A stretch of 64,000 nucleotides of DNA from the NCBI GenBank assembly GCA_018657065.1, contig JABHXU010000017.1:43067-107066 (forward strand). Reading direction: 5' to 3'. A program made the position numbers and the translations under genes. The notes under the pieces were generated by a model that saw nothing but the letters and a program-made list of their open reading frames with translations, had not been told where the DNA came from and ran no database searches. Positions 10,467 to 46,866 of the stretch are shown here, in pieces. Within the stretch, counting starts at the first letter, position 1. Every line of letters begins with the position of its first letter. Origin of the DNA: an archaeon. GTDB taxonomy: Archaea > Nanobdellota > Nanobdellia > Woesearchaeales > GW2011-AR15.

Positions 10467-11513
10467 TTATAATGTTGCAAGTTCAACATTATTAAATTTT
10501 CTTTTATAATATTGCATATAATTTACTTTTCTTTCTATTGCATTTAATACTACTTTAGTAAAATTAAGTCCTTCAAGTTTACTAGCAGTACCTAGACCAC
10601 CAGGAGTAAAGACATTAATTTCTAAAATTTTAGTTCCAACAATATCTAAACCTACAAAAAACATTCCATCTTGAACTAATTTAGGTCTAACCATCTCAGC
10701 AATTTTTAACATTTCTGGAGTTACCGTAGCTGGAGCAATAGTTCCACCTGCGTGAATATTACTTCTTAAATCATCTGGGGAACGAATTCTTCTTGCTGCA
10801 GCATATTTACCTCTATGTTTAAGAGGAACACCATTAACTAGGAAAAGTCTAGTGTCACCTTCAGCTGCTTCTGGAACATATTCTTGAGCAATAACATATC
10901 CTGCTCTACTAACAGTGTCAATAATCTGATTAATATTAGAAATATCTGTTTTTTCAAGTAAAAAAACATTTTGTCCACCAGATCCTGAAATAGGTTTTAC
11001 AACAATTTTTTCAAATTTTTTTGCAAATGCTTTGATTTCCTCTCTATTTCTAGTTATTAAGGTTTTAGGTCTAAGTTCTTCAGGAAATTCTTGAGAATAT
11101 AATTTGTTACTTGCTTTAGATAATCCATTTGGATCATTTAAAACAATCACACCGTGTTTTGTTGCAATTCTTCCAAAATTTATACCAACATTTCTAGCCC
11201 ATGCTCTATTTGATTGTTCAGAAGCAGGATCATTCCTAAGCATCAGAACATCAAGCTGATCAATAGATATTCTTTCAATAATATGTTTTTTTGGATCTTT
11301 TAAATCTTTTAAATGTACATCAAGAGATTTGTACTTTTTACCTTTAACTTTTCTAGCGTGTGCTTTTATTAGATCATCTACATCATATGAAAGTCCACCA
11401 ACATCCATAATCCATACATCGTGGCCTGCATTAATTGCAGCTTGTGATAATCTCATTGTAGTGTATCTAGGACGTTCTGTTTCAAAATCATTTATTAAAA
11501 AACCTATTTTCAT
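10467..11513 (-). CDS. gshB: Glutathione synthetase-like ATP-grasp ligase
   Basis: Aligns by eye along the whole length with E. coli GshB: MLRNDP vs LMRKDPP; LITRNREEIKAFAKKFEKIVVKPISGSGGQNVF vs LVTRNKAQLKAFWEKHSDIILKPLDGMGGASIF; RLFLVNGVPL; NIHAGGT; FFVGLDIVGTKILEINVFTPGG vs IFVGLDIIGDRLTEINVTSP. Confidence 0.75.
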   Translation of the reverse strand: MKIGFLINDFETERPRYTTMRLSQAAINAGHDVWIMDVGGLSYDVDDLIKAHARKVKGKKYKSLDVHLKDLKDPKKHIIERISIDQLDVLMLRNDPASEQSNRAWARNVGINFGRIATKHGVIVLNDPNGLSKASNKLYSQEFPEELRPKTLITRNREEIKAFAKKFEKIVVKPISGSGGQNVFLLEKTDISNINQIIDTVSRAGYVIAQEYVPEAAEGDTRLFLVNGVPLKHRGKYAAARRIRSPDDLRSNIHAGGTIAPATVTPEMLKIAEMVRPKLVQDGMFFVGLDIVGTKILEINVFTPGGLGTASKLEGLNFTKVVLNAIERKVNYMQYYKRKFNNVELATL

Positions 11514-11517
11514 TTTT

Positions 11518-12590
11518 TCACCTATATGTTTTATTAAAGTAGTAGGATTCTTGATGTAATTTCAAAAATATTTTACTTGGGTCATTTAAACTTGGGATAT
11601 TCATTATTGTATTAATTTGTTTAATGTTTATTTTTCCATAATGTAAAAGATGCAAACAACTTGCATTTTGGATGAAATTTTTTACATCTATATAACCTTT
11701 TAGGTAAACATAGTCTTTTGTAAATGCTCCAGGTTTAGAAGTATTACATAATCCTCGTTTAGCACGTAGAGTCATAAGCCAAGAACTTTCTTTTGAAAAA
11801 TAATTTAATAACTCATTATATGTTTCTCTAAAACTAGTATTTAATGCATAATGAACAGCAAGAACACGTCCAGCATATCCTTTTAAAACTCGTTTGGATA
11901 ATCCACCAATTTTTTTTCTTTATATAAAGCAAGGCCTTCTTCAGTTGATTCATATTTAGCAAAACCAATTGAAAACATTTTATAAGGTTGCATTTCTCCA
12001 CAAACAGATCTTAAAACATGTCCATATATTTCATGAGCTATTAATCTATCAACTTGTATTTTTGTAAACATATCATTTTTTTTAATATAGACTGTTTTGT
12101 TTGTTGGGTTTACCATAGCTTTTGCTAAAATTGGTGCTTCAAGAACTGTCCATTTATTTGAAAATAAAGAAATTTCATTTAAAAACAATTTTTGAACAAC
12201 AGAACTAGGTATTGAACCTTTAGTAGTTTCACGGGTTTTGCTTGGAACTCTAGTGATATAGATTTTTGCTTTTTCAATTAATTTTTCATTAGGAAAACCA
12301 TATGCTCTCTTTGAAAAATTAGTAAATTTTTTTGTACCCAAGAATTTTCGCATTAATAATTGTGCTCTTAATTCTTTTCCTTTGGCTTTCATAAGTTGAT
12401 CAATAGGTCTATATCCATAAGAAATGCTTTTTAATAATTTAAATGAATATTTAACTGGATTATAGGTGAATTGTGGGTTGTATGTTTTTGAAGCAAAAAA
12501 TTTAGATTTTTCACTATTTAAATTAGATGGATTAAAATGTTTTAAATCAATTGTTCTTGAAATTTTTGCAAGTTTTTTATCTGCTATCAT
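11518..12590 (-). pseudogene. DUF1704 / QEGLA-motif HExxH metallopeptidase-like gene, split by a frameshift in a T8/A8 homopolymer (11910-11917)
   Basis: N-terminal ORF 11883-12590 carries IAHEIYGHVL (HExxH) and TEEGLALY (QEGLA-like), then ends. The C-terminal continuation (…KGYAGRVLAVHYALNTSFRETYNELL… then ORF 11518-11775) is in the +1 frame. One additional A in the A8 run would fuse them into about 360 aa. Confidence 0.65.
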
Positions 12591-13069: not shown

Positions 13070-13585
13070 ATGAATTATGTTTCACTATCAGATCTAACAA
13101 AATTAGTTAATGAGAAAGATAGTGAAAGAATCATAGATATTTTGATAAATTTTAAAGAACGCTGGAATGAGCTTATTCCTAAGTTAAAAGAAAAACAAGA
13201 AGTAAAACTTCAAGGATTAAATCTAAAAAACAGTGGGCTCTCGGGATTGGATTTATCAGATATAATTTTAGCAGATACAGATCTATCAGGATCAGATTTA
13301 TCAAATACTGATTTAAGTAATACGATAATTTCAAGAACAAATTTTTCAAATTCAAATATGTCAAATTCAAATTTATATTCTGCAAGAATTACACAAACAA
13401 ATTTTTCAGGTGCAAAAGTGTATAACGTTAAAATGCTTAATACTGTGATGACCGGAAGTGTAAATTTATTTGGAGTATACGATAGTGAACCTGAATATGA
13501 TACACATCCAGATAAAACTAAAGAAGGATTTATTTTACTTGAGGCATTGGAGCATTCTGGCGAGGAAGAATCAAACTATTACTAA
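13070..13585 (+). CDS. Pentapeptide-repeat protein
   Basis: LQGLNLKNSGLSGLDLSDIILADTDLSGSDLSNTDLSNTIISRTNFSNSNMSNSNLYSARITQTNFSGAKV shows consecutive A(D/N)LSx pentapeptides. Confidence 0.7.
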   Translation: MNYVSLSDLTKLVNEKDSERIIDILINFKERWNELIPKLKEKQEVKLQGLNLKNSGLSGLDLSDIILADTDLSGSDLSNTDLSNTIISRTNFSNSNMSNSNLYSARITQTNFSGAKVYNVKMLNTVMTGSVNLFGVYDSEPEYDTHPDKTKEGFILLEALEHSGEEESNYY

Positions 13586-13656
13586 TTCTTTTTTCGATAT
13601 AAATAAATATTACTTCTTCTCTCAAATTATTTAAGATATTTAGGGGTGAAGTTATT

Positions 13657-16600
13657 TTGAGGAAAAAAACACTATTAATTCTTTCGATTTTTTTGATATT
13701 ATTATTACAACTAACTTATGCTCAATATTTTGGTGGAGAGTGGAATGAAGGTGATTGTAAAAGCACAAAAGATCCATTGTATCTGGAAATGCCTAACACC
13801 ATTCACGCAATGATTCCAACAACTGTTAAAGTATATATCAATGATCCAATTGTCAAAGAACATGCACAGTATGTAGAGATTTTTGCAGGAAATTCCCATG
13901 TATATTCACTTTCTGGAAATGAGTTTTCAAGAAGTTCAGGTGGTAATTTTAGAGAGACTATGAAATATAATGGAGAAGATACAATAGAATTTGGTTTTAG
14001 ACCTCAAGACAGAGTTGGATTGTCTTCATCAGTAATAGTAACTTTCTACATAGTAAAAGAATCACCTGGATTAGAATGGCCAGATACAAGTGATGAAGAA
14101 TCTCCTTTTTACCAATATGGATGTCATCATGAAAGAAATAGTATAATGTGTAATAAAGAAGATGGTTGTATGATTTGTCATCATTCTATAGGACAAGTTA
14201 GTAAAGACTTTATAATGAGCGATACTGATGAAACAGTATCAATTCCAGATAGATTGGATTTTATAGATGAAAAAACAGAAAATAATTATCAGTCTGTAGC
14301 CTCTCAATATTTATCTTATAATGAGAAAAAAAAGTATATAAGTGAACAAGGAGACGAATATGAATCAAGTGATATTTACAAAATTGAACTTACAACACAG
14401 GAACTTTGGGATACATTTGAAGTATATAAAGAAAATGATCTTGATGGATATATCGGTCCAAAAGATAATATAAAAAATACTGACGTTACTACTAATGATC
14501 TTTCAGCGAGTGGTTCTGAGCTTACTGGGAAAGCATATGAAATGGTTTATAATGGACCGCTCAATCCACAGAACGGAGCTGACTTTATAGATATTTATTA
14601 TCAATTATTTGCTGAGATGTCGCCAAAAGGAAGCGGAGTTATGATAGTTAAAGCAACTAGACAAACAGTTTTTGAAAAAGGCACAGGTTCAAAAGCAGAA
14701 CTTAATGCAGTCAGAAGCGATGTTCTAAATATGCTCTCAAGCTACAAATTATCAAAAGGTAAAGTTATTGATAATAAAGATTATGATTATTTTTCTTTTA
14801 AATGGTATGTAAAAGGAGAATCTAAAGAAGAAGAAACAACTGAAGAATATTATGTAGCTGGTCATATTAGTGATTATTATGATCACCCATTATCTTATAT
14901 GAAGATAATAGCAAAAGTAGATAATATTGAATATGAAGGATACACTGATGACGAAGGAGTTTACATGATACCATTAACAGGACTAGAACTTAAAGAAGGT
15001 GAAGAAAAAGATGTTGCTTTATTTGCAATGTTTGATTATTATAGAAACGGCAATAATTATTTTGATACTTATTTTAGAAAGCCTAATGGCCAATATAGTC
15101 AAGTAATTGCATATAAAAAAGATAAATTAGTCTATGGAGAACATTTACAAATTGATTTTAGAATGGATGGTGAAGGAAACTTTTTTACTTCATTTGCTAG
15201 TAAAGCCGATATAAAACATTATTCACTTATTTATTTTCATACAGCTGAAGCAGTAGAATTTGTGTTAAGTACATTAAAGGAAGATATGGATTATAAACTT
15301 CCAGTAACAATTTATGTAGGAAATCAACATAAAAAAACATTGTATTCACCAGGAGATTCAAGGATTCTTATATCAGCTGCTCAAACCTCTCTTTCTGATT
15401 CAAATAGGCCTGACAATCGTGAATACCATGAATTCATGCATGCGCTTATGTATGATATATACAATGCATGGCCAGCAGGAAGAATGGAACCAGGTGTTAA
15501 GAATCATGATGGTTTTTTGAATAACAATACAGCAGATTCTTATTTGGAAGGTTTTGCAGAGTTTATGTCACTAGTTATATCTGATTATAATAAAGAACCA
15601 AGTCCTAGCATTTATGCAGGTTTTGGAAGTATGGAAAAAAATTATAAACCTTGGGATGGTAGAGGGATGGATGAAGAATTTGCTGTTGCATCCTTGTTAT
15701 GGGATATTTACGATGATAGAAACGAAAACGGAGATTCAATTACATTAACTTTGGATGAAATCTGGTCTGTTTTGAAAGTTAAAAGAAAGGATTTTTATGA
15801 ATACTATAAAGCATTTAAGGCAGAATTTCCTAAACAAGCAGATGCATTTGATGAATTATTTAAAATGCATGGATTTTTTTATGATACAAGAGCAGGGAAT
15901 AGTAAATATGATCTAGGTGAACCATGGAAATATACAAATGCTCAAAAAACTCAGTATAGATTCATTGATCTTTCAGGTAATATTTCACTAACAAAAACAA
16001 TTAATTATCAGCCTGGGTTCATTATAGGAAAAGCAGCAAATTACGATCGTCCGGATAGATCATCAGCAGTTAGAATTCCAAATGCATTTTTAAAAGTGAA
16101 AGATGATGAAGTTGATTTTTATACAATTAAGGTTATACATAAAGATAGTAGTCTTGACTATGAATATTTTATTGAAAGAGCTGAAGGAAAAATCTATATT
16201 CAACCATTACCTTTGGATGACAATGTTGAAATAATTGTAACTCCTATGTCAAAGGATTATAAATCTGAAAATATTTTTAGTATTAATAGTCAAGATATGA
16301 ATGAGATTATTTCTTCTGATAAAGAATTTGATGGATTTTTTGCAGAACATGATTTTGATTTAAAATCAACAGGTAATAATGTTGATGACAAATATATTTT
16401 ATTTGATGATACAGTTCCTTCTTATGAATATGAAGGAGATTTAGGTGAAGAATATGAAATTAAAGAATCAAAAAATAAAGGATTATCTGGGATAAACTCT
16501 GAACCAGGTTTTAAGTTTTCTTTTGGCAAATTTTTTTGGTTCATTATATTTGCAGCATTTGGATACTTTTATGTTGCAAAACCAATTATTAGAAAAAAAG

Positions 16601-16848
16601 CAAATAATATTTTTAAAAAAATAATTGATTTGATAGCAAAAGGAATTAAGTGGTTCATAAAATTTGGTATTCCTTTTATTGTTAAGATAATTAAATGGAT
16701 TGTTAGAGGAATAGTAAAATTATTCAAATTGGTTTTTCATCATAGTAAAAAAGCATATCATAAAGCAAAACCGCATGTTAAATCTGCGCATAAAAACTTA
16801 AAGAAAAAAGTAACTGATATGAAAAGTACTAAAAGGAAAAAGAATTAA
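13657..16848 (+). CDS. Large secreted zinc metallopeptidase (HExxH) with C-terminal TM anchor and highly cationic amphipathic tail
   Basis: Signal peptide MRKKTLLILSIFLILLLQLTYAQ. HEFMHALMYD (HExxH) with a downstream EGFAEFMS (candidate third-ligand Glu). C-terminal FWFIIFAAFGYFYV TM, then a K/R/H-rich helix-prone tail (KKIIDLIAKGIKWFIKFGIPFIVKIIKWIVRGIVKLFKLVFHHSKK...). Confidence 0.65.
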   Translation: MRKKTLLILSIFLILLLQLTYAQYFGGEWNEGDCKSTKDPLYLEMPNTIHAMIPTTVKVYINDPIVKEHAQYVEIFAGNSHVYSLSGNEFSRSSGGNFRETMKYNGEDTIEFGFRPQDRVGLSSSVIVTFYIVKESPGLEWPDTSDEESPFYQYGCHHERNSIMCNKEDGCMICHHSIGQVSKDFIMSDTDETVSIPDRLDFIDEKTENNYQSVASQYLSYNEKKKYISEQGDEYESSDIYKIELTTQELWDTFEVYKENDLDGYIGPKDNIKNTDVTTNDLSASGSELTGKAYEMVYNGPLNPQNGADFIDIYYQLFAEMSPKGSGVMIVKATRQTVFEKGTGSKAELNAVRSDVLNMLSSYKLSKGKVIDNKDYDYFSFKWYVKGESKEEETTEEYYVAGHISDYYDHPLSYMKIIAKVDNIEYEGYTDDEGVYMIPLTGLELKEGEEKDVALFAMFDYYRNGNNYFDTYFRKPNGQYSQVIAYKKDKLVYGEHLQIDFRMDGEGNFFTSFASKADIKHYSLIYFHTAEAVEFVLSTLKEDMDYKLPVTIYVGNQHKKTLYSPGDSRILISAAQTSLSDSNRPDNREYHEFMHALMYDIYNAWPAGRMEPGVKNHDGFLNNNTADSYLEGFAEFMSLVISDYNKEPSPSIYAGFGSMEKNYKPWDGRGMDEEFAVASLLWDIYDDRNENGDSITLTLDEIWSVLKVKRKDFYEYYKAFKAEFPKQADAFDELFKMHGFFYDTRAGNSKYDLGEPWKYTNAQKTQYRFIDLSGNISLTKTINYQPGFIIGKAANYDRPDRSSAVRIPNAFLKVKDDEVDFYTIKVIHKDSSLDYEYFIERAEGKIYIQPLPLDDNVEIIVTPMSKDYKSENIFSINSQDMNEIISSDKEFDGFFAEHDFDLKSTGNNVDDKYILFDDTVPSYEYEGDLGEEYEIKESKNKGLSGINSEPGFKFSFGKFFWFIIFAAFGYFYVAKPIIRKKANNIFKKIIDLIAKGIKWFIKFGIPFIVKIIKWIVRGIVKLFKLVFHHSKKAYHKAKPHVKSAHKNLKKKVTDMKSTKRKKN

Positions 16849-16940: not shown

Positions 16941-17129
16941 ATGGAACTAACACCAGAATTACTCGGAAACAGTTTTGTCATTATGTTAATAACTTATATG
17001 ATCGCTTTTGGGTTTCAAATATTTATGATGTATTTGAACTGGAAACAATCTAGAGTTAATAATCAAATGGATGAACTAATTAATGAAGTAAAAGAAATTA
17101 AAAAAGAAATTAAAAAAATGAAAAAGTAA
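16941..17129 (+). CDS. Small membrane protein (1 TM + K/E-rich helix)
   Basis: 62 aa; hydrophobic helix VIMLITYMIAFGFQIFMMYL, then a charged coiled segment. Confidence 0.3.
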   Translation: MELTPELLGNSFVIMLITYMIAFGFQIFMMYLNWKQSRVNNQMDELINEVKEIKKEIKKMKK

Positions 17130-18740: not shown

Positions 18741-21700
18741 ATGTTTGGCGCTGACGAAGCAACTTATTGGTCAGATGAAACAGAATTATTTTTTGAAAGA
18801 TCAGTAGTTTGGTTAACAGAATTTGTAGATACAGATGGTGACGGAACACCAGACTTCGAAGATAATTGTCCTTGTTCATATAATCCAGGTCAAGAAGATG
18901 CAGATGGAGATGGACTAGGAGATATTTGTGATAATTGTCCAGTTAATTATAATCCAAATCAAGCAGACAATGATGGAGATACATTAGGAAATGTTTGTGA
19001 TATCTGTCCAGATGACACAGGTAATGATGCAGATAGTGATGGTTTTTGTTACCCAGTTGATTGTGTCGACACAGATAATACTATTTATCCAGGTGCGGAT
19101 GAAACTGTTTGTAATGGAATAGATAATGATTGTGATATCCTTTTAGATGAAGATTACGAAGAGGTTTCTTGTGGAGAGGGTGATTGTTCTGGAATGACTT
19201 CTTGCGAATTTGGTGAAATTTTTTGTAAAAATCAAGAAATAAATCAAGCAGGAAGTGATTGTGGAACTTGTTGTCAATGTGAAAATGATAATGATCCTCA
19301 AGAAGTATATGATGGAGCTCAAGATTTAGATTGTTCAGGTAATAATTTGCCTGGAATTTCAACTTGTAATAGTGATCCAGATAATAATCCAATGACATAT
19401 GATACTGCTGTTGGTTTTATTAGTGAATGCAGTGCAATTGATGTGTGTACAGAGGGAGAATATGAATTTAATCATGAATGTGATGTAGACTCTTGTGATG
19501 CAGAATGTGAAGATGGAAATTTCGAAGATGGAGATGGATGTAGTTCATCTTGTATTTTAGAAATTTGTGGAGATAATATTTTACATGAAACATTAGGAGA
19601 AGAATGCGACGATGGTAATACAGTCGATTTAGATGGTTGTGATGCAAGTTGTGTTATTGAATACTGTGGAGACGGTATTGATAATGATGCAGACAATGAA
19701 GAATGTGATGATGGTAATGATGTCGATGACGATGCATGTTCAAATTTATGTGTAACTAATTACTGTGGGGATTCAATCACTAATAATGGTGAAGAATGTG
19801 ATGATGGTAATAACGCAGACGGAGATGGATGTTCCGCATTATGTTTAGATGAATATTGTGGAGACGGTATTGACAATGATGCAGACAATGAAGAATGTGA
19901 TGATGGTAATGACGTAGATGACGATGCATGTTCAAACTTATGTGTAACTAATTACTGTGGGGATTCAATCACTAATAATGGTGAAGAATGTGATGATGGT
20001 AATAACGCAGACGGAGATGGATGTTCCGCATTATGTTTAGATGAATATTGCGGAGATGGAATACCTCAACCAGGTGAACAATGTGATGATGGTAATAATG
20101 TTAATGGAGATGGATGTGACAGTTTATGTGTTTCAGAAGTTTGTGGGAATGGTATACCTCAATTTGGTGAAGTTTGTGATGATGGTAATTTAGATGATAC
20201 AGATGCATGTTTAAGTGATTGTACGGCACCAGTTTGTGGTGATAGTATTGTATGGTTTGGCCATGAAGAATGTGATGATGGTGCAAATGGGATTGATACT
20301 GATGAATGTACAGATTCATGTACTTTAACTTATTGTGGAGATCAAACTCTTCAAATTTGGAATGGAAATAATGAAGTTGAAGAATGTGATGATGGTGCAG
20401 ATGGAGATGATACAAATACTTGTTATGATGATTGTTCATTTACATATTGTGGAGATTCTATAGTTCAAGATCCAAATGGATACGGAGTTAGTGAAGTTTG
20501 TGATGGCAATTCAATAGTTTGTGAAAACTTTGAAGGATATGCAGGAACAAGAGAATGTCAAAGTTCATGTAGAGGATTCGAAGATTGTCACACTGATGAA
20601 TATTGTGGAGATTCAATTACAAATGGATTAGAAGAATGTGATGATGGTAATAATGTTAATAATGATGGATGTGATGCATTTTGTGTCATTGAATATTGTG
20701 GAGATTCAATTACAAACGGATTAGAAGAATGTGATGATGGAAACAATGATGATGGTGATGGATGTGACGCAAGTTGTTATGACGAAATTTGTGGAAATAA
20801 TATATTGCAATTTGGTGAACAATGTGATGATGGAAACAATGATGATGAAGATGGATGTTCTTCTCAATGTGTTATTGAGTCATGTGGAGACACAATTGTT
20901 CAACTTGGATTAGGTGAAGAATGTGATGATGGTCAAGGAGATAACACTGATTCATGTCTAGATACATGTATGGACGCTGAGTGCGGAGATACATTTGTAT
21001 GGGATGGACAAGAAGAATGTGATGACGGAAACACAATCGATTTAGACGGTTGTGATGCAAGTTGTGTTATTGAATACTGTGGAGACGGAATAATCAATAA
21101 TGTTAATGAAATCTGTGACGAAGGTATTGATAATGGAGAACCTCTTCATTGTGACGCAGAATGTGGTGGAATAACTCTTCCAGTTTGTGGAAACTCTTAT
21201 CTTGAAGAAGGAGAGGAATGTGATGATAGTAATGTAGAAAATAATGACGGTTGTAATTCCGTTTGTGTCCTAGAAATATGTGGTGATGGAATTGTTCAGG
21301 ATGGTATTGGCGAAGAATGTGAATACGATAACCAATGTAATGATCAAGATTATCATACTGCAGACTATTGTGTAGAATGTGGTTGTGAAAATCCAATTAT
21401 TTGTGAAGATGAATGTCTTCCAACTAGTGAAGATATTTGTTCAGAGGATAGTGACTCAATCTTAGAATGTAGAAATGATTTTGATTCAGATCCATGTTAC
21501 GAATATGGTCCTAAATATGATTGTACAAATAACGAAGCATGTACAGTTATAGATCTAGATGAAGCATATTGTGGATCTTGCCAAACAAATTGTGGAGGAA
21601 AATGTTATTACACTCAAACAATTTATGGTGAATGGTCATGCGGCGAAGGAGATTGTTTATACACACCAGTAATTGAGTTTATTGACATTGATAATGATTA

Positions 21701-22295
21701 CATTGATGATAGATGTGATGATTGTATTGATCTAGATAAGGATGGTATTTGTGACCATGAAGATACTTGTCCAGATGTTTATAATCCAACAAACGTAGAT
21801 ACTGATGGAGATGGTGTAGGAAATGCTTGTGACTATGATAGAGATAATGATGGGTATGATGCATCAGTAGATTGTCATGATTGGGACAAAGATATTAATC
21901 CAGGTATGAAAGAAATTAAGGGAGACGGGAAAGATAATGACTGTGATCCACTAACTTCAGACAAAGAAATCAAAATTAGAAGTCAAGATTTATTGCTTGG
22001 AACAAAAATCATGAACGAAGACACAGCAATTGATGATAGAGAATTAAGAGTAGCTGTTTATGTCAAAAACAAAGGAAGTAAAACTGCTAAAAATATTAAA
22101 CTTAAAGCAACACTTCTAGATGAATATGTTTCTGACGAAACAATTATGCCAACTCTTAAAGCAGGAAAAACTAGTAGAGTAATCTTAAATATTCCTCTTT
22201 ATGGTGGAGTAATGCCAGATGAATACTACTTAAGAACTACATTAAGTGTTGAAACAGTAAAAAAAGCAAAATATAGTCAAGTGTTATTGCACTGA
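18741..22295 (+). CDS. Giant cysteine-rich repeat protein: thrombospondin type-3-like Ca-binding repeats + about 20 Myxococcus-type cysteine-rich repeats ([11 protein letters not shown]...DGC...C) + C-terminal CARDB-like domain
   Basis: 1184 aa. [38 protein letters not shown] (TSP3-like). Reiterated YCGDxI..[15 protein letters not shown](S/D)xxC units. TSP3-like repeats again near the C-terminus, then a beta-rich tail. No N-terminal signal peptide at the annotated ATG. Confidence 0.8.
   Translation: [1184 protein letters not shown]
19665..20048. repeat. Near-perfect tandem duplication, 2 x 192 bp, inside the cysteine-rich repeat gene
   Basis: 19665-19856 and 19857-20048 differ at about 5 nt. 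Both encode [64 protein letters not shown]. Confidence 0.8.
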
Positions 22296-39530: not shown

Positions 39531-39783
39531 TAAAATTGTTAGTGTTAGAATGCCTAAAGCTTTAGTTATTGAGCTAAAAGAAGTAGCTTCAAAAAATCAT
39601 TATTTAGATGTTAGTGAAACTATTCGTTCTCTTCTTAGAAAAAGATGGTTAGAGCAAAAAAAGCCACATAAAGCTAAATTAAATCAAATTAAGCAAAATC
39701 TTTCTGGAATTTCTGATCCTAAACAACTTAGGGCATTAAAACAAACAATTAAACTTTTGGAGGAAATAAATGAGATTCAATAA
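39511..39783 (+). CDS. Second ribbon-helix-helix (CopG-like) protein
   Basis: ...IVSVRMPKALVIELKEVASKNHYLDVSETIRSLLRKRWLE. Start is ambiguous (TTG 39502 / GTG 39511 / ATG about 39549). Overlaps the start of the next gene. Confidence 0.5.
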   Translation, partial: GVSLITDKIVSVRMPKALVIELKEVASKNHYLDVSETIRSLLRKRWLEQKKPHKAKLNQIKQNLSGISDPKQLRALKQTIKLLEEINEIQ

Positions 39784-42769
39784 ACAATTATTGTCATGGG
39801 TAATTTTGGCAATTATTGTAGCATTAGCTTTCTCATTTAGTGATACAGGAGTAAACGCTTCAGATAATACAACTAATCTTACTGTAATAAATTCATCTTT
39901 AGAAATTTGGGACACAAATTTTGTTTATGTAAATGAGTCAGTGACAATATATGCTAATTATAGTTATGAAAATGGAACTATTATTGGAATAGATATTTGT
40001 CAATTTATTGGAGAATACATGTCATTTAACATGACTTCAGGATTATATTATTACATTGAAACGTATGATACTCCAGGAAATTATAGTTATGATATTTATT
40101 GTTATAAAGAAGGATACGCTGAAAAAGAGGAGTTTGGAATTATTGAAGTAATTCAAAATACAACTCAAAATGAAACAAACATAACAATCATTGATGAAGA
40201 TAATGATGGATATAGTAGTGAAACAGATTGTGATGATAATAATGCTAATATTAATCCAGGAATGAATGAAGTATTTTATAATGGAATTGATGATGATTGT
40301 AATCCATTAACAAATGATTATGTATTTTTTAATGTAACAACTAGTAGAAGTTCTTACGCTCATCAAGAAACAGTTTCAATTCATATTAATGCCCTCAATC
40401 ATTCAGATACTTATATTACAATTAATACTCCAACAAACGTTTCATATGTTTACATTTTTGCAAATGGAAGCTATCCAGCAACTCAAGAATTTTCTCTAAC
40501 AGGCATATCAGGAATTTATTCAATTGATGCAATAAATTATTATGAAGATTATACTAATACAAAATCTGTAAATTTTACAGTATCTAATTCTATGGCAGTT
40601 AATATTGTAACAAATAAAAATACTATAGAATTAGGTGAATCAATTAATTTTAGGGCAGAAATTTCCGGAAACATTGGTGAAGCAAATCTTATTTGGAATA
40701 TGGATGATGGAAATGAAGAATATGATACTGTTTTTGATTATACATATGATAATCCAGGAACTTATAATATTGTTTTAATTGTAACAGATCAAGGAGGAAA
40801 CCAAGTAATTAAAACTAAACAAATAGTAGTTAATCCAAAATATTTCTTAGAAGTAAAAGTAGTAGATAATTCAACAGGAAATATAATTTTGAATTCAACA
40901 GTTGAATTAGATAATGATGAAAAAGAAGTAAATTTATCAGGAAAAGTTGAATATGAAGTAACAAATATTACTTATAATTTAGAAGTGTTTGCAGAAGGGT
41001 ATTATAGTTATGATGAAAATATAAAAATCAATAAATCTCTTGATTTTATAGTTAAACTAGTTAAAAATCCTAGTGATATAATTCCCTCAGTCTCTTTAAT
41101 ATCTCCAGGAAATAATTCTGATGTTTCAAATCCAGATTTTAGATTTAAGTTTACAGACAATGGCAAAGCAAAATGTACTTTATATGTAACAGAAGGTGAT
41201 GGATGGTGGCTTGACGTTAATGAATCTGATAATTTGAATCCTAATACTGAATACATGTTTAAACCTGAACTAGGGAAAGGTAATTATCATTGGAAGGTAC
41301 AATGTAGGGATGAAGATGATAATGTTGGAAGTAGTAAACAATATTATCTAAAAATAAAAGAAAGTACGACAAGTACTCAAAACATAAATAGTGAATCAGA
41401 GACAACTTACAATGTAATTCAAAATGTGTATAATGTGATTCCAGATTTTGACACTTATAGTCCAGATGAGAAGAAGATTGCAGAATATCTTAAAATGGAT
41501 GTTCTAATAAAAGATGCTCAAAGAAAATTAGAAATGGCTAATAGAGATCTTTTTAATTTACGAAACGAACCCGACACCCAATCAATAATTGACAAAAGAG
41601 ATGTAATCTATAATGACATTGATAAAATTAAGGATGATACACCTTTATCTGTTAGTGTAATAGACAAGGCAGATTTTGTAAAATATCCAACAGATGAAGA
41701 ACTAGAAAAATTATTTGAAGATTATATAGCATTAAAAGGAATAGAATTAAGCAAAAGTCAAAGAACCAGTCTTCTTGAGAAAAATAAACTTTTACAAAAA
41801 AAAGTTAGTGTTAGAACTTTGGCTTATTTAGTAGAAATTCAATATATTTCTGGAAGAAGCGAAGAAATAACATTAGTTTCTAGAATTTTAAGTACTGATG
41901 AAACTGCAACAGATATTATGTTTGTAGAATTTGTACCTAAAGATTTAATTGAAAGCGTAAATGAAATTGTGTTTATAACACCTGTAGATAATATTTTACA
42001 AGAGGATCCTGTATTTGAAATTCAACTAAATAAAGGAAAAGAATTTTTATATTATGTTAAAGAAACAATTGAACTAGATAAAATTCCTAAAATAGATATT
42101 GCGGCAATTAGTACAATAATAACACAACAAGATTCAAAATTAACAGGTTTTGTAGTATTTGATAATTTAGGTTTTTCAGAGTCAAATACTAAAATATTTA
42201 TAATTCAAATGATAGTTGTGTTTATACTACTCGGAGTATATTTATTTTTTTATTTTACTTCAGGATCTCAATTTACACTACCTAGTTTTAGTTTTAATTT
42301 TTTGAAAAAATCAAGTCCTGTAAGTCCAGTTGCAAATTATGGATCCACTAAAATTAAAGAAGTAGTTTATAAACCAGCTGTTCAAGAATCAGTTGTATCA
42401 AATATTCCATTGGATGAAGCACATAAAATTGAATACATGATTCAAGTTATTGGTAAAGCTCATGCATTACTTAATGTAGATTTAGAAAAAGCAGCATTAT
42501 ATTATCACGAGGTTAAGTTCTTATATGAATTTTTACCTAAAGGTGATCAAGATCATGTACATAATAAAGTAATTAATTTAGCAGATGAACTTAATTTAAA
42601 ACATGTTCAAAAATTAGTAGATAAAGCTGTAATTGAATTAGCTCATAATAATAAGGATAATGCTCATGAAATTTATGATCATATTGTTGAAGAATTTGAA
42701 AAATTATCAGAAAGTCACAAACAAAAAGTTTACAAAAAATGCTGTGAAATAGCACTCCACTTAAAATGA
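39770..42769 (+). CDS. 999-aa surface glycoprotein: signal peptide, sequon-saturated ectodomain with PKD-like domain, TM helix, about 180-aa cytoplasmic tail
   Basis: MRFNKQLLSWVILAIIVALAFSFS signal. PKD-like block ...IWNMDDGNEEYDTVFDYTYDNPGTYNIVLIVTDQGGNQ. TM IFIIQMIVVFILLGVYLFFYF. Confidence 0.7.
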   Translation: MRFNKQLLSWVILAIIVALAFSFSDTGVNASDNTTNLTVINSSLEIWDTNFVYVNESVTIYANYSYENGTIIGIDICQFIGEYMSFNMTSGLYYYIETYDTPGNYSYDIYCYKEGYAEKEEFGIIEVIQNTTQNETNITIIDEDNDGYSSETDCDDNNANINPGMNEVFYNGIDDDCNPLTNDYVFFNVTTSRSSYAHQETVSIHINALNHSDTYITINTPTNVSYVYIFANGSYPATQEFSLTGISGIYSIDAINYYEDYTNTKSVNFTVSNSMAVNIVTNKNTIELGESINFRAEISGNIGEANLIWNMDDGNEEYDTVFDYTYDNPGTYNIVLIVTDQGGNQVIKTKQIVVNPKYFLEVKVVDNSTGNIILNSTVELDNDEKEVNLSGKVEYEVTNITYNLEVFAEGYYSYDENIKINKSLDFIVKLVKNPSDIIPSVSLISPGNNSDVSNPDFRFKFTDNGKAKCTLYVTEGDGWWLDVNESDNLNPNTEYMFKPELGKGNYHWKVQCRDEDDNVGSSKQYYLKIKESTTSTQNINSESETTYNVIQNVYNVIPDFDTYSPDEKKIAEYLKMDVLIKDAQRKLEMANRDLFNLRNEPDTQSIIDKRDVIYNDIDKIKDDTPLSVSVIDKADFVKYPTDEELEKLFEDYIALKGIELSKSQRTSLLEKNKLLQKKVSVRTLAYLVEIQYISGRSEEITLVSRILSTDETATDIMFVEFVPKDLIESVNEIVFITPVDNILQEDPVFEIQLNKGKEFLYYVKETIELDKIPKIDIAAISTIITQQDSKLTGFVVFDNLGFSESNTKIFIIQMIVVFILLGVYLFFYFTSGSQFTLPSFSFNFLKKSSPVSPVANYGSTKIKEVVYKPAVQESVVSNIPLDEAHKIEYMIQVIGKAHALLNVDLEKAALYYHEVKFLYEFLPKGDQDHVHNKVINLADELNLKHVQKLVDKAVIELAHNNKDNAHEIYDHIVEEFEKLSESHKQKVYKKCCEIALHLK

Positions 42770-45700
42770 CAAAGAAAAAAACTAAAATTGACATAGACAC
42801 AATTTTAATGAATGTTTTAGTAGTTTTACTTATCTTAATTTCAACTATTTCATTAGTAATTATAAGAGATTATGTGGGGATGGTTGCTTCACATGGTGCA
42901 AGGGGAGGAAGAATAACTGAAATAAATGTTGTTCATCAGGCACCAGCCACAATTTGGAATGGAATATTTGGAATTGCAATTCAAGCAGCATTGGATACTC
43001 CTTGGTATGTATTTGCGAATAATGGAGAAGTATCTGAACTTAACCCTATTTATCCTTGTTTTGAAATTGATAAAGTTCATGAAATTTATTCCACAATTTT
43101 AAATGAAACAGAACTTATATGGGCAAATGTTACAGTTGGAAATACAACTATGTTGGATAACTGGGTAGGAATTTTATCAAATGATACCATGTCAGCAACA
43201 CAGACATTTAATGACACAATTTCTGTAGAGTTAGGTAATGTTACTTTTAGTAATGTTCCTGCTATTTACATGAAAGAATATAATGAACCAAATAGTACAG
43301 AGTTTCCAGTAGGAATTTTACAATACAATGGAACACCAATTATGGTTACACTAATTAACACAGATTACATAACTGGATTTAGACCTGATAAATTAGTGAA
43401 CTATGAAATGATGGTTCCAGTACCATTTAATTCAACAAATTTAAAGTATTATTTATATGTAGATCCTTATGATACTTGTCCTTATGGTTCAGGTGGATCA
43501 GCAGAAGAAATAGGAAGAGGAGAAGTATATGGATATGTAACGGATACGGATACAGGTCAATTTTTAGAAAATACTTTAGTTGCAATTGATGGAAAAATAT
43601 ATGTTACAAGTTCAGATGGATATTATAATATTTCTGAGGTGGCTGAAGGTGAACGATATATAGTTGCAACAAAGCTTGGATTTGGAAACTATGTTAGAAA
43701 TTTAACAATTGTTGAAGATGTTTCTTTAGAACATAATATTTCCATGGATATTGTATTTGATCAATCGTTTACTGGGACAGGTTCAGGAGTAGGAACTGGT
43801 GTAGACGATCCAGGAACAAAAACTAAATCAGGAGATGGTCCTGGTATAGGTCCTGGTATAGGTCCTGGTATAGGTCCATTTATTGAAAAACCAGAAAATA
43901 TTGGTGTTGATAATTGGATGTCTCTAGACCGACTTAAGAAAAGAATTAGATTAAATAATTTTTTTACTGAACATTTACTTGTGTTTAGTTTTAGATCTGA
44001 ACCTGCAGAAGTGAAAATTCAAATAACAGGTGACGCTGCAGAAATAATTGAACTTTCAGACACCTCTGCAACAATTGAACAAAATGAGTATGCAAATTTT
44101 TCAGTAAGAGGGTATGGTTTAGAAGAAGGTCAGTATAATGGGGAAATTGTAGTTAGTGGGGATTTTAATGGGACAATTCCAATTGAAATTACAGTTAGTG
44201 ATGAAGAAAGATTACCTGTAGAAGCACTTTTAATTCAATTAGATGTATTAACAAGAAGACCTCTTCCAGGAAAGAACTTTAAATTTAGTGTGAACCTTCA
44301 AAATTTACTTATTGATGAGAGATATGATGTAAGATTAGATTATTATTTAAGAGGTATTGAAAGTGAAACAGCTAATAATACATTATATATAGGAAATGAG
44401 ACTGTAAGCTTAAGAACAACAGAAACAGTTATTGAAGAATTTGTAATTCCGTCTGAATGGCCTAAAGGTGATTATTTCTTAATTATAGAAGCAAATTATT
44501 TTGATATGTATTCAAGAACTACAACAGTTTTTGAACTATTTGAGCCAATTCAAAATTACAAAGTATTTGGATTAGTTGAACTTTGGAAAGTATTAACTGT
44601 TTTAGGAGTTTTAGCTTTTATTCTTGGTTTAGTTTTGTATATTAGACGTGAAATTAATAAAAGAAAAAGATTCCATGCAAAAGTAGAATATAAATTACTT
44701 CCAAAAAAAGGACCTAGGTCATTATATGTAGGAAAAATCGCTGAAACAGAAAATGATACATATTTTGATATGGATAAATTAACAGTCCATAGTATTGTTG
44801 CAGGATCAACAGGAGGAGGTAAATCTATTTCTGCTCAAGTAATAATTGAAGAATGTTTAATGAAGGATGTAGCAGTTATTGTTATTGATCCTACAGCACA
44901 ATGGTCTGGAATGTTAAGAAAATGTCAAGATCAAAAAATGATGTCTTATTATCCTAGATTTCATTTAACAAAAAAAAGTTCTAGAGCATTTAATGGAAAT
45001 GTTAGAGCTATTATGAATCCACTTGAAAAAGTAGATTTACTTAAATTTTGGAAACCTGGAGAAATTCAAGTTATTACAACAAGTACTCTTGATCCAAAAG
45101 GCATGGATATTTTTGTTGCAAATACAGTTAGACAAGTTTTCAAATCAAATCTAAAAGAGTATAGGGGTTTACGATTTATGATGGTTTATGATGAAGTTCA
45201 CAGATTGCTACCTAAATTTGGTGGTACTGGAGAAGGATTTGTTCAAATTGAAAGGGCTTGTAGGGAATTTAGAAAGTGGGGTATAGGCGTTATGCTTATT
45301 TCACAGGTTTTAGCAGACTTCGTTGGACAAATTAAAGCAAACATTAACACTGAAGTACAAATGAAAACAAGAGATGAAAGTGATTTAGCTAGAATTAAGG
45401 ATAAATATGGAGCATCATTTATTCAAGAACTTGTTAAATCTCCAGTAGGAAGTGGCATGGTTCAAAACTCATCATGGAATCGAGGTTTACCTTATTATGT
45501 TACTTTTAGACCAATTTTACATAGTGTTGTAAGATTAAGTGATGAAGAACTTGAAAAATATAACAAATATAATTTGATTGCAGAAGACCTTGAATTTCAA
45601 TTAGATCAATTGGAAGAAACAGGTAAAGATGTGTTTGATTTAAGACTTGAATTAAAATTATCAGTTGATAAAATAAAACAAGGCGGTTTTAATATGGTTG

Positions 45701-46866
45701 AAATTTATTTAGAAGGATTAAAACCACGAATTGAAAAAATATGGAAAGATTTAGGCCAAGAACCTAAACATAAAGAAGTAGAACTTGTTAGTGAAAAAGA
45801 ATTAAAAGCGTCTATTGATGAAGCAGAATCTGAAAGTAAAAAAGCTAAAGAAGCTGCAGCTTCAGCAGTAAGTGGTGATGAAGAGGAAGGTGCAAAGTCT
45901 CTAGGATTAAATGATGATGTAGCACCAGATCAAATGTTAAAATTAGTTAATGGAACACTTGTCATTAAGTTAAAAGCATTGCTTGATGAAGTTAAAGTGT
46001 TAAAAGAACCAGAATTTAAAACTCATGTGGATGAAGGAAAAAACGATTTATCAGATTGGATTAGAACAGCTATAGGAAGTGATGCTTGGGCAGATTTAGC
46101 AGATCCAATTTTAACGAAAGGGGATTATATTAAATTTTTAGAAGCACTTGATTCAGGTAAAGAAAAAACATTTAAACCAACAACGCCAAGAAAAGAGCCT
46201 TATTCTAGTAAAAAAGAAGTTCCTGTTGAAGAGAAAAAAGAGGATGTTAAGGGAGAAGGAAAAGAAGAATCTAAGGAAGATAAAAACGAGGAATCTAAAT
46301 CTGATGAAATAAAAAAAACAGAAACTAATTCTGAAGAAAAAGTTCAAGAAACAAGTAGTCAGGAAGAAAAAAAAGAAGATGAATCAAATCTAAATAAGAA
46401 TCAAGAGATTCAATCTGAAAATAAAGAGCAAGAGCTTAAACTTGCACAAAATAATGAAAATCAAAAAAGTAATGAATCTCAAGAAGAGCAAAAAGGAACA
46501 AATTTTGATTTGAATGAAGTTAGACAAAAACTAGCATCATTACAAAACTCAGAGGAGAAAATAAATTATTTATTAGAATTAATAAATAAAAATCCAAATA
46601 ATAATGATTTATTGTTTTCATTAGCATCAGAATATCATAGAGCTCAAAAATATGATGAAGCTGAAATTAATTATAAAAAAATTTTAGAAAGAGATTCTGG
46701 AAATTTCAAAGTTATGTATTATTTGGCAAGTTTATATAGCACTATGAAAAAATATGATGAAGCTCTTGAATTGTTTAATAAGGTTAAAGCAATTAAACCA
46801 GATTATCAAAAGGTACAACAATATTTAGATTCAATAAATAAAATAAAACAAAAGGCAACACAATGA
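42766..46866 (+). CDS. 1366-aa membrane protein: N-terminal TM, extracellular CarboxypepD_reg-like domain + (GPGI)n, second TM, cytoplasmic HerA/FtsK-type (DUF87) P-loop ATPase, E/K-rich linker, C-terminal TPR repeats
   Basis: ATGA overlap with the upstream gene. GYVTDTDTGQFLENTLVAIDGKIYVTSSDGYYNISEV (CarboxypepD_reg-like). Walker A HSIVAGSTGGGKSISAQVIIEECLMKDVAVIVIDPTAQW. Walker B MMVYDEVHRL. ...GVMLISQ. TPR: LLFSLASEYHRAQKYDEAEINYKKILE... / YYLASLYSTMKKYDEALELFNKV. Confidence 0.7.
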   Translation: MTKKKTKIDIDTILMNVLVVLLILISTISLVIIRDYVGMVASHGARGGRITEINVVHQAPATIWNGIFGIAIQAALDTPWYVFANNGEVSELNPIYPCFEIDKVHEIYSTILNETELIWANVTVGNTTMLDNWVGILSNDTMSATQTFNDTISVELGNVTFSNVPAIYMKEYNEPNSTEFPVGILQYNGTPIMVTLINTDYITGFRPDKLVNYEMMVPVPFNSTNLKYYLYVDPYDTCPYGSGGSAEEIGRGEVYGYVTDTDTGQFLENTLVAIDGKIYVTSSDGYYNISEVAEGERYIVATKLGFGNYVRNLTIVEDVSLEHNISMDIVFDQSFTGTGSGVGTGVDDPGTKTKSGDGPGIGPGIGPGIGPFIEKPENIGVDNWMSLDRLKKRIRLNNFFTEHLLVFSFRSEPAEVKIQITGDAAEIIELSDTSATIEQNEYANFSVRGYGLEEGQYNGEIVVSGDFNGTIPIEITVSDEERLPVEALLIQLDVLTRRPLPGKNFKFSVNLQNLLIDERYDVRLDYYLRGIESETANNTLYIGNETVSLRTTETVIEEFVIPSEWPKGDYFLIIEANYFDMYSRTTTVFELFEPIQNYKVFGLVELWKVLTVLGVLAFILGLVLYIRREINKRKRFHAKVEYKLLPKKGPRSLYVGKIAETENDTYFDMDKLTVHSIVAGSTGGGKSISAQVIIEECLMKDVAVIVIDPTAQWSGMLRKCQDQKMMSYYPRFHLTKKSSRAFNGNVRAIMNPLEKVDLLKFWKPGEIQVITTSTLDPKGMDIFVANTVRQVFKSNLKEYRGLRFMMVYDEVHRLLPKFGGTGEGFVQIERACREFRKWGIGVMLISQVLADFVGQIKANINTEVQMKTRDESDLARIKDKYGASFIQELVKSPVGSGMVQNSSWNRGLPYYVTFRPILHSVVRLSDEELEKYNKYNLIAEDLEFQLDQLEETGKDVFDLRLELKLSVDKIKQGGFNMVEIYLEGLKPRIEKIWKDLGQEPKHKEVELVSEKELKASIDEAESESKKAKEAAASAVSGDEEEGAKSLGLNDDVAPDQMLKLVNGTLVIKLKALLDEVKVLKEPEFKTHVDEGKNDLSDWIRTAIGSDAWADLADPILTKGDYIKFLEALDSGKEKTFKPTTPRKEPYSSKKEVPVEEKKEDVKGEGKEESKEDKNEESKSDEIKKTETNSEEKVQETSSQEEKKEDESNLNKNQEIQSENKEQELKLAQNNENQKSNESQEEQKGTNFDLNEVRQKLASLQNSEEKINYLLELINKNPNNNDLLFSLASEYHRAQKYDEAEINYKKILERDSGNFKVMYYLASLYSTMKKYDEALELFNKVKAIKPDYQKVQQYLDSINKIKQKATQ

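Follow-up and report, generated by a model that had tools for sequence, protein, structure and literature searches.

An open reading frame (ORF) in the genome of a woesearchaeal archaeon raises the question of what a large, apparently exported zinc protease does with the strongly cationic tail behind its membrane anchor, and on which side of the membrane that tail lies. The window that we analyzed is a stretch of 64,000 nucleotides (64 kb) from this genome (GTDB lineage Archaea; Nanobdellota; Nanobdellia; Woesearchaeales; GW2011-AR15; GenBank assembly GCA_018657065.1, contig JABHXU010000017.1, positions 43,067 to 107,066 of the forward strand). The ORF occupies window positions 13657–16848 on the plus strand, as do all features of the protein described below, and it reads from a TTG start through 1063 amino acids to a stop codon; the window is AT-rich (about 22–35% GC) and the GC-content of the genome is 27%. 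From this reading frame and its homologs, the product is predicted to be a type I membrane-anchored metallopeptidase. A preliminary description of the locus had proposed a secreted protein of 1063 amino acids with the motifs HEFMH and EGFAEF, a C-terminal transmembrane (TM) helix and a tail that could insert into the membrane of another cell. The motifs (residues 591–595 and 631–636), the length, the predicted export and the TM helix were confirmed by the ORF and by hydrophobicity, and the gluzincin-type active site that it suggested gained support from the predicted fold and from invariant catalytic residues; the role proposed for the tail was not supported. Taking the reading as a whole, we consider it probable that the protein is a thermolysin-like protease of the cell surface whose cytoplasmic tail acts as an in-plane anchor in the inner leaflet of the membrane.

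A word-indexed database search returned nine homologs, all named "hypothetical" and all from Nanoarchaeota, Woesearchaeota or unclassified archaeal metagenome-assembled genomes (MAGs). An exhaustive profile search identified at least 1011 representatives of clusters at 50% identity (E ≤ 1e-3), with 249 at E ≤ 1e-30, and the core shared by the family covers profile positions of about 395–900. Architectures and C-termini were counted on the best 157 representatives. HExxH was present in 145 of them (the rest are mostly fragments) and HExxH-x30-55-EGxA in 134, with a modal spacing of 35 residues. The sequences REYHEFxH, NH and DSYxEGFAEF were invariant in all nine close homologs. Across an alignment of the core of 80 sequences, spanning 24–81% identity, the invariant positions were H591, E592, H595, H617, G619, N622, D627, E631 and E673, together with five positions of the C-terminal domain (G747, E755, D771, G791 and R801).

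Judging by gluzincin chemistry, H591 and H595 of the HEFMH motif (15427–15441) would be zinc ligands and E592 the general base. Gluzincins are further characterized by a "glutamate helix" (E166/D170 in thermolysin, NEGFA in the M1 family). The candidate for this helix is DSYLEGFAEF (residues 627–636; 15535–15564), in which E631 is the proposed third zinc ligand and E635, at the +4 position, stands where thermolysin has Asp170. The loop between the two active-site helices contains N616-H617 (15502–15507), a candidate stabilizer of the transition state by analogy with Tyr157/His231 of thermolysin. The strand RILISA (residues 568–573) probably binds the backbone of the substrate.

The fold was modeled with AlphaFold2 (AF2). 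A full-length run on nine sequences assigned residues 555–807 a predicted local distance difference test score (pLDDT) below 50. The model of the core (residues 395–910), built from the 80-sequence alignment, reached a mean pLDDT of 91.9 and a predicted template modeling score (pTM) of 0.83. HExxH lies inside an alpha-helix of this core model (residues 589–602; model numbering 195–208), the next long helix (626–644; model numbering 232–250) contains E631 five residues from its start, and the fold is two-lobed and of the thermolysin type. Comparisons of the core model with known structures scored 18.5 for thermolysin (249 residues aligned, 2.9 Å, 9–10% identity), 15.5 for pseudolysin/LasB, 14.2 for M36 fungalysin, 11–14.7 for M1 aminopeptidases and 8–10 for M61, M30, M9 and M60. 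Foldseek was in agreement, with thermolysin matched at E = 1.3e-6 and a probability of 1.0. Because the HExxH helix and the position of E631 and E635 on the next helix match the glutamate-helix layout, the protein is best read as a thermolysin-fold gluzincin, with H591, H595 and E631 as predicted zinc ligands and E592 as the predicted general base; the geometry attributed to E631 follows from the order of the helices in the model.

The catalytic region is surrounded by adhesin-like beta-sandwich domains, a setting that would also suit a pseudo-protease or an adhesin, in which the thermolysin fold is retained by a non-catalytic binding module. However, none of the four catalytic residues (H, E, H and E) varies over the full identity range of the 80 sequences, as expected under selection for catalysis, and we regard a non-catalytic ectodomain as very unlikely.

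Hidden Markov models placed the HExxH region in no peptidase family of Pfam or NCBIfam. Using hmmscan, none was found for the window protein (E ≤ 1), for the nine close homologs (E ≤ 10) or for 15 distant members (E ≤ 0.01 to 1), and the beta-sandwich was the only region matched in searches with the whole protein or with alignments. Relative to the M4 family (thermolysin, pseudolysin/LasB, aureolysin), to which it is 8–10% identical, the window protein matches neither Peptidase_M4 nor M4_C, and no FTP/PepSY propeptide was detected in it. M4 enzymes present HExxH-x19-E with the glutamate in NExxSD, whereas the window protein presents a spacing of 35 residues and the motif LEGFAEF, and the inserted loop bears the invariant N616-H617. 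It is also membrane-anchored rather than secreted, and it reaches about 1000 amino acids with its flanking beta domains. Unlike the M1 enzymes (aminopeptidase N, ERAP1, LTA4 hydrolase and tricorn factor F3), which have a spacing of 18, it contains no GxMEN motif, matches no Peptidase_M1 model and lacks both the M1-type N-terminal domain and the C-terminal ERAP1-like domain. M36 fungalysin, M9 collagenase, M60 mucinases, M61 and M30 differ from it in domain order, and none of their sequence models matches it.

Hydrophobicity sufficient to span a membrane was found in two segments only, residues 1–26 and about 956–978. The first contains a predicted signal peptide (residues 1–22, MRKKTLLILSIFLILLLQLTYA followed by QY; 13657–13722) with a basic n-region, a hydrophobic segment and a small residue at position −1, which would be cleaved after residue 22. 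Its insertion ΔG of +0.9 is the lowest in the protein (Hessa scale, 19-residue windows). The second is a single TM helix (residues about 956–978, core F959–A974; 16522–16590), recognized in Kyte-Doolittle windows and as an AF2 helix at residues 956–974; its Hessa ΔG of +2.4 kcal/mol is the second lowest. About 930 residues would be exported by means of the Sec signal peptide. An extracellular context is suggested by this signal peptide, by the domains that occur in relatives (CarboxypepD_reg, EF-hand, TSP3, dockerin and beta-helix) and by the PGF-type signals of members from Thermoplasmatota.

The 15-residue flanks of the TM helix carry a net charge of 0 on the ectodomain side and of +4 on the tail side. 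Since the protein combines an N-terminal signal peptide with a single TM helix and with these flank charges, its C-terminus is predicted to be cytoplasmic (type I topology). Paralogs present zinc ribbons at the position of the tail and, zinc ribbons being cytoplasmic modules, this provides independent support for an inside location. Every 19-residue window of the tail has an insertion ΔG of at least +8.3 kcal/mol on the Hessa scale, a value on which the tail was rejected as a second TM helix or as a re-entrant hairpin; of the two placements considered in the preliminary description, only the cytoplasmic one is therefore retained. A plain Kyte-Doolittle threshold flags part of the tail in three homologs (P0004, P0007 and P0013).

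The tail itself (residues 979–1063) comprises 85 amino acids, in place of the 70 initially reported (a 62-residue sequence had been quoted), and its net charge of +25 results from 24 Lys and 3 Arg against 2 Asp, with 5 His in addition. Its peak helical hydrophobic moment is 0.76 (18-residue windows); elsewhere in the protein the moment averages 0.20 (SD 0.10) and does not exceed 0.56. The hydrophobicity of the tail shows an alpha-helical periodicity with a peak at 96–98 degrees. The helical-wheel and moment analyses thus bear out its description as a cationic amphipathic segment. It starts with a predicted juxtamembrane helix that is cationic and amphipathic (helix 1, residues 979–1002, RKKANNIFKKIIDLIAKGIKWFIK; 16591–16662), with a moment of up to 0.74, a periodicity of 96 degrees and a matching helical wheel. 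An invariant helix break, G1004-x-P1006 (16666–16674), separates it from helix 2 (residues 1007–1027, FIVKIIKWIVRGIVKLFKLVF; 16675–16737), which has a moment of 0.75 and a minimum ΔG of +8.3 and is not predicted to be transmembrane. On the helical wheel, one wide face of helix 2 is hydrophobic, and K1010, K1013, R1017, K1021, K1024 and H1028 line up in a narrow stripe. After helix 2, alignments define a His/Lys motif with the invariant P1039 (HHSKKAYHKAKPHVKSAH, residues 1028–1045; 16738–16791), and the composition of the last residues (1046–1063; 16792–16845) marks a Lys-rich C-terminal end. Five histidines (H1028, H1029, H1035, H1040 and H1045) form a stripe conserved in the clade of the window protein, and methanogen homologs keep at most the His of K-P-H. 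This stripe is a possible metal-binding or pH-sensing feature of the cytoplasmic side.

In its charge, helicity and high moment, the tail resembles in-plane amphipathic helices that target proteins to membranes, such as the C-terminal helices of MinD and FtsA, as well as antimicrobial-type helices, but the likeness is only physical and no homology was detected. Unlike the MinD/FtsA helices, the tail follows a TM helix and is not the sole anchor, and it is longer (two helices plus the His/Lys motif). Unlike cationic antimicrobial-type helices, it is predicted to lie inside the cell and is not an exported toxin-like peptide.

Tails of 75–90 amino acids in Methanolobus and Methanosarcina align with the window tail along its whole length (for example ...KGS.EFNEKG(M/L/V)PAIK.A.KKAAEYTAKGAEFA..QTKEGYEKAKPH.KKAQEDIKKKI.E.KEKK), and they share the motif (S/T)K.AY.KAKPH.KKA with it. 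In an alignment of 14 tails from DPANN archaea and Methanosarcinales, G1004, P1006 and P1039 were invariant and F1000, A1044 and K1051 nearly so, and the conserved layout consists of helix 1, G-x-P, helix 2, K-P-H and a Lys-rich helix 3. The ectodomains of the two groups have the same composition, with 26% hydrophobic residues and 16–17% Asp and Glu in both the Methanosarcinales and the window's clade. In contrast, hydrophobic residues make up 15% of the tail in Methanosarcinales and 37% in the window's clade, Asp and Glu 16% and 3%, and His 1% and 6%, respectively. Because the compositional shift is confined to the tail and the ectodomain is unshifted, AT-bias was rejected as the source of the character of the tail.

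These comparisons bear on the simplest explanation of the tail, namely that it has no specific function and is an extended stop-transfer signal whose amphipathic look is a by-product of a composition rich in Lys, Ile and Phe in a genome with 27% GC. A signal peptide and a C-terminal TM helix are found in almost all complete members of the family, and 90 of the 157 representatives have only 0–25 residues after the TM helix, often poly-Lys/Arg. Likewise, a DPANN relative that is 48% identical (P0009) ends with HKRK. The genome is AT-rich and no known domain matches the tail, both of which would suit this explanation. On the other hand, the G-x-P, the K-P-H and the three-segment layout are kept from Methanosarcinales to DPANN archaea, the ectodomain composition is equal where the tail alone is shifted, and the observed moment of 0.76 is reached by just 15 of 2000 shuffles that keep the composition of the tail. 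A tail without specific function is therefore unlikely, although a cytoplasmic stop-transfer signal was one outcome that the preliminary description had foreseen: the cytoplasmic location stands and the simple stop-transfer signal does not. Because of the conserved three-segment architecture and the tail-specific compositional shift, the tail is, as far as its sequence tells, more than a stop-transfer signal.

Direct searches for the tail were less informative. Queries with the single sequence or with the 14-sequence profile, which are short and compositionally biased, returned no matches and missed even known members of the family. Pfam searches on isolated tails gave only an insignificant similarity to YtxH (E of about 1). 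No similar tail was found on other proteins of the 64-kb window; a high helical moment in the protein at 58070–59836 belongs to a HAMP domain and was discarded.

The strong positive charge and the amphipathicity of the tail, which it shares with membrane-active peptides, had led to the proposal that it lies exposed on the outside and could enter, or attach to, the membrane of a host or partner cell as an ectosymbiotic adaptation. The wide hydrophobic face of helix 2 could be cited in its favor, and so could the restriction of the hydrophobic cationic character to the DPANN clade. However, the signal peptide, the single TM helix and the positive-inside rule all place the tail in the cytoplasm, no window of it is predicted to cross a membrane (minimum ΔG of +8.3), and paralogs have zinc ribbons in its position. 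Moreover, the same tail module occurs in cultured free-living Methanolobus and Methanosarcina, which contradicts the epibiont reading of it, and neither the close DPANN relative P0009 nor most other members of the family have a tail. We find an attachment to other cells scarcely credible.

A cytoplasmic tail could alternatively serve mainly as an adaptor that binds proteins or nucleic acids and links the protease to an intracellular partner. The Methanosarcinales tail, with 15% hydrophobic and 16% acidic residues, implies an ancestral role other than membrane insertion. The motif (S/T)K.AYEKAKPH.KKA is conserved, zinc ribbons occupy the tail position elsewhere and the window's clade has its His stripe, all of which would fit an adaptor. 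Yet no conserved neighbor gene hints at a partner, and helices 1 and 2 of the window's clade are too hydrophobic (37%) to be soluble by themselves. An adaptor is possible but, in our opinion, doubtful for the window protein, and a protein- or nucleic acid-binding role is perhaps likelier for the methanogen form of the tail.

Under the reading that we favor, a surface protease with an in-plane anchor, the Sec signal peptide would export the N-terminal region, the beta-sandwich, the protease domain and the C-terminal beta domain, and the acidic linker would tether them to the TM helix. Held at the surface of its own cell, the protease would cut extracellular or cell-surface polypeptides, perhaps for peptide scavenging or for the processing of surface proteins. 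The tail module would go back to a common ancestor with Methanosarcinales, whose tail looks soluble and is rich in Ala, Glu and Lys; in the window's clade, the tail alone would have turned very hydrophobic, lost acidic residues and gained His. Helices 1 and 2 would lie flat in the cytoplasmic leaflet with their Lys snorkeling to the head groups of anionic archaeal lipids, and they would form a second in-plane anchor that may fix the orientation, the clustering or the localization of the protease. The interfacial location of the tail is probable on this reasoning, and its anchor role plausible. A bolder idea is that the tail is a functional coupling device beyond a simple anchor; in the DPANN clade, its two very hydrophobic helices with their Lys stripes and its His stripe might cluster the protease in membrane patches (e.g., at cell-cell contacts) or sense curvature, pH or metal, or else a stub of TM helix and tail left after shedding of the ectodomain might be active in the membrane of the producer itself. 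Together with the rest of the family, whose core is 45–49% identical between Methanosarcinales and Woese/Nanoarchaeota, this would point to surface proteolysis as a system exchanged between methanogens and their putative DPANN partners. We consider this idea improbable.

Several observations weigh against the favored reading. The spacing of 35 residues between H595 and E631 exceeds the 19 of M4 and the 18 of M1, and H617 or D627 are formally possible as alternative third ligands. The catalytic region has no match in Pfam (E ≤ 1), in NCBIfam (E ≤ 10) or in the PDB searched with phmmer and hmmsearch, including profiles built from alignments. A comparison with thermolysin by hhalign gave a probability of 0.4%, covering the HExxH region only, and it was not used for residue equivalences. 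The TM helix has a short hydrophobic core (16 residues), and the topology was derived from simple scales and the positive-inside rule. AF2 presents the tail as a single long helix with a pLDDT of 52–67. Finally, P0009, which lies on a contig of 938 kb, ends with its HKRK directly after the TM helix. Because this relative and most of the family have no tail, the tail must be dispensable for the enzyme.

The C-terminal ends vary widely across the family. Besides the 90 representatives with short ends, 10 of the 157 present a zinc ribbon (CxxC...CxxC) after the TM helix, 16 have a long Lys-rich tail with a K-P-H-type motif, 16 have other long tails and 25, fragments included, have no C-terminal TM helix. 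Five members from Thermoplasmatota (L005, L059, L065, L066 and L069) end with TPGF(E/Q), a TM helix and a KK(T)KR-type end. Among them, L005, L059 and L066 were tested, and all three match the PGF-type models Heimdall-CTERM and Loki-CTERM, and L066 scores 25.6 bits against Heimdall-CTERM, for which the curated cutoff is 24. Other members, from Altiarchaeota, Micrarchaeota and relatives (L030, L032, L033, L037, L063, L071, L074, L077 and L078), have CC(C)-x-P or C-x-C directly before a terminal hydrophobic helix (e.g., PVCCCLGPLAALAAS..., KGCCCIPALPLLL..., LQCCAPAVVILSL...). Three of these ends (L030, L037 and L078) matched no sorting domain of NCBIfam, and this type of end may represent an uncatalogued C-terminal sorting or lipidation signal. 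To judge from these signatures, one type of ectodomain is joined to different predicted anchoring systems in different phyla.

The window protein might itself end with such a signal, in which case the TM helix and the tail would be removed on maturation as a cleavable sequence of the archaeosortase/PGF-CTERM kind. It shares the PGF tripeptide, as EPGF six residues before the TM helix, and the corresponding sequence in relatives is xGF(K/R)FP; the signals of Thermoplasmatota members that match Heimdall-CTERM and Loki-CTERM point in the same direction. However, neither the whole protein nor its C-terminal 61 amino acids match any CTERM model of NCBIfam, and even its closest homologs do not all keep the PGF. 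Known signals end a few basic residues past the TM helix and do not carry a conserved module of 85 amino acids, and no archaeosortase was found among the tested membrane proteins of the 64-kb window. A cleavable sorting signal is thus most improbable in the window protein.

When one genome per species was scanned, 127 loci of the family were identified. They are distributed in Woese-, Nano-, Micr- and Altiarchaeota, Thermoplasmatota, Bathyarchaeia, many Methanosarcinales and some Clostridia (e.g., Phosphitispora sp. TUW77). Cultured carriers include Methanolobus halotolerans, M. psychrotolerans, M. bombayensis, Methanolobus sp. WCC5, which has a complete genome, and Methanosarcina sp. KYL-1. 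The core of the window protein is 45–49% identical to Methanolobus and Methanosarcina proteins (L011–L023 and L038) but only 29–42% identical to several homologs labeled as Woesearchaeota (L035, L050 and L052). In a neighbor-joining tree of the core domain, which has no support values and whose taxa are MAG labels, all the proteins with long tails fall in one clade that mixes Methanosarcinales and DPANN sequences and contains a few tail-less members. This pattern would fit an exchange of genes between methanogens and DPANN archaea, for which it constitutes weak evidence.

In RefSeq, the protein of M. halotolerans (WP_135389658.1) is entered as "carboxypeptidase-like regulatory domain-containing protein" and that of WCC5 (WP_407354715.1) as "hypothetical protein", and full-text literature searches returned no description of the family. 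It appears to be an unannotated family inside a well-known clan. What is new is a large family of membrane-anchored archaeal metallopeptidases with a predicted thermolysin fold, an atypical HExxH-x35-E spacing and a modular cytoplasmic end, and this novelty lies mainly at the level of annotation.

The remaining regions of the window protein are mostly beta-rich. The mature N-terminal region (residues 23–394; 13723–14838), of about 370 residues, was modeled in the full-length AF2 run with a pLDDT of about 70–87, contains a Cys cluster (C156, C165, C171 and C174) and, according to profile coverage, is common to closer relatives only; Foldseek searches with this region of the full-length model returned only generic Ig-like or adhesin folds. 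It is followed by a beta-sandwich similar to transthyretin and CarboxypepD_reg (residues 395–495; 14839–15141), by the thermolysin-like catalytic domain (residues about 496–745; 15142–15891) and by a C-terminal beta-rich domain conserved in the family (residues 746–910; 15892–16386), for which the profile core extends to about position 900 and the core model gives strands with a pLDDT of about 70–96. Alignments delimit an acidic linker (YEYEGDLGEEYE..., residues 911–955; 16387–16521) that ends with EPGFKFSFG and was modeled with low confidence (pLDDT below 50).

The start of the gene affects how the protein is perceived. A public JGI call (P0001) starts 12 codons downstream of the TTG, omits window positions 13657–13692 and yields 1051 amino acids. 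The reading of 1063 amino acids was preferred because a Shine-Dalgarno-like GGGGTGA (13643–13649) is found in the sequence 7 nt upstream of the TTG, and the resulting N-terminus (MRKKTLLILSIFLILLLQLTYA before QY) lines up with the MKK... starts of the homologs. The P0001 start would remove half of the signal peptide, so that automated predictors could miss the export.

The protease gene is flanked by genes for a 171-amino-acid pentapeptide-repeat protein (13070–13585, plus strand), 71 nt upstream, and for a 62-amino-acid protein with a single TM helix and a Lys/Glu-rich helix (16941–17129, plus strand), 92 nt downstream. Both were also called on JGI contigs of the same population, and neither is conserved beside more distant homologs. 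No conserved synteny or operon partner was found: the neighbors differ on the contigs of P0009, P0006 and P0004 and are shared only within the population. Further upstream, a MATCAP-like metallopeptidase (PF08014; AHEIYGH...EEGLALY) is split into ORFs of 235 and 85 amino acids on the minus strand (11883–12590 and 11518–11775, respectively). The split is not a sequencing error, because it recurs on three independent metagenome contigs (L082–L084). An ATP-grasp ligase of the glutathione-synthetase/RimK type (10467–11513, minus strand) adjoins this split peptidase, and the two possibly constitute a peptide-ligase/peptidase pair. The neighboring genes also include a winged-helix regulator.

Other large proteins are encoded downstream. 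The ORF at 18741–22295 (plus strand) encodes a Cys-rich protein of 1184 amino acids with 13 DUF4215 repeats, many D/N-rich CxxC-type repeats and a C-terminal CARDB domain; it has no obvious signal peptide or TM helix, and its N-terminus may be miscalled. Two large membrane proteins are encoded on the plus strand in frames that overlap by 4 nt (39770–42769 and 42766–46866). The first, of 999 amino acids, has a signal peptide, PKD/Big/MopE-like domains, a TM helix at residues 805–834 and a cytoplasmic tail of about 165 amino acids. The second, of 1366 amino acids, has an N-terminal TM helix, an extracellular CarboxypepD_reg domain, a TM helix at residues ~599–630 and a cytoplasmic HerA/FtsK-like ATPase (DUF87) with TPR. 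The fusion of a surface domain to a translocase-type ATPase of the HerA/FtsK kind is unusual, and it might have a role in the transfer of DNA or proteins across the envelope.

If our reading is correct, a widespread family of archaeal cell-surface zinc proteases, with at least 1011 clusters at 50% identity, has been invisible to annotation: Pfam and NCBIfam have no model of the catalytic domain, and RefSeq names its members "hypothetical" or "carboxypeptidase regulatory-like domain-containing". The idea of a tail that attacks or enters the membrane of a host should be dropped. The homologs of cultured Methanolobus and Methanosarcina make an experimental study feasible, and the different ends found on one ectodomain (none, PGF-type signal, Cys-rich motif, zinc ribbon and Lys-rich tail) constitute a natural series for studying how surface enzymes are anchored and organized. 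With a name for the family, extracellular proteolysis and peptide scavenging could be estimated better for anoxic sediments and waters, and this would also be useful for DPANN archaea and other organisms that depend on external amino acids.

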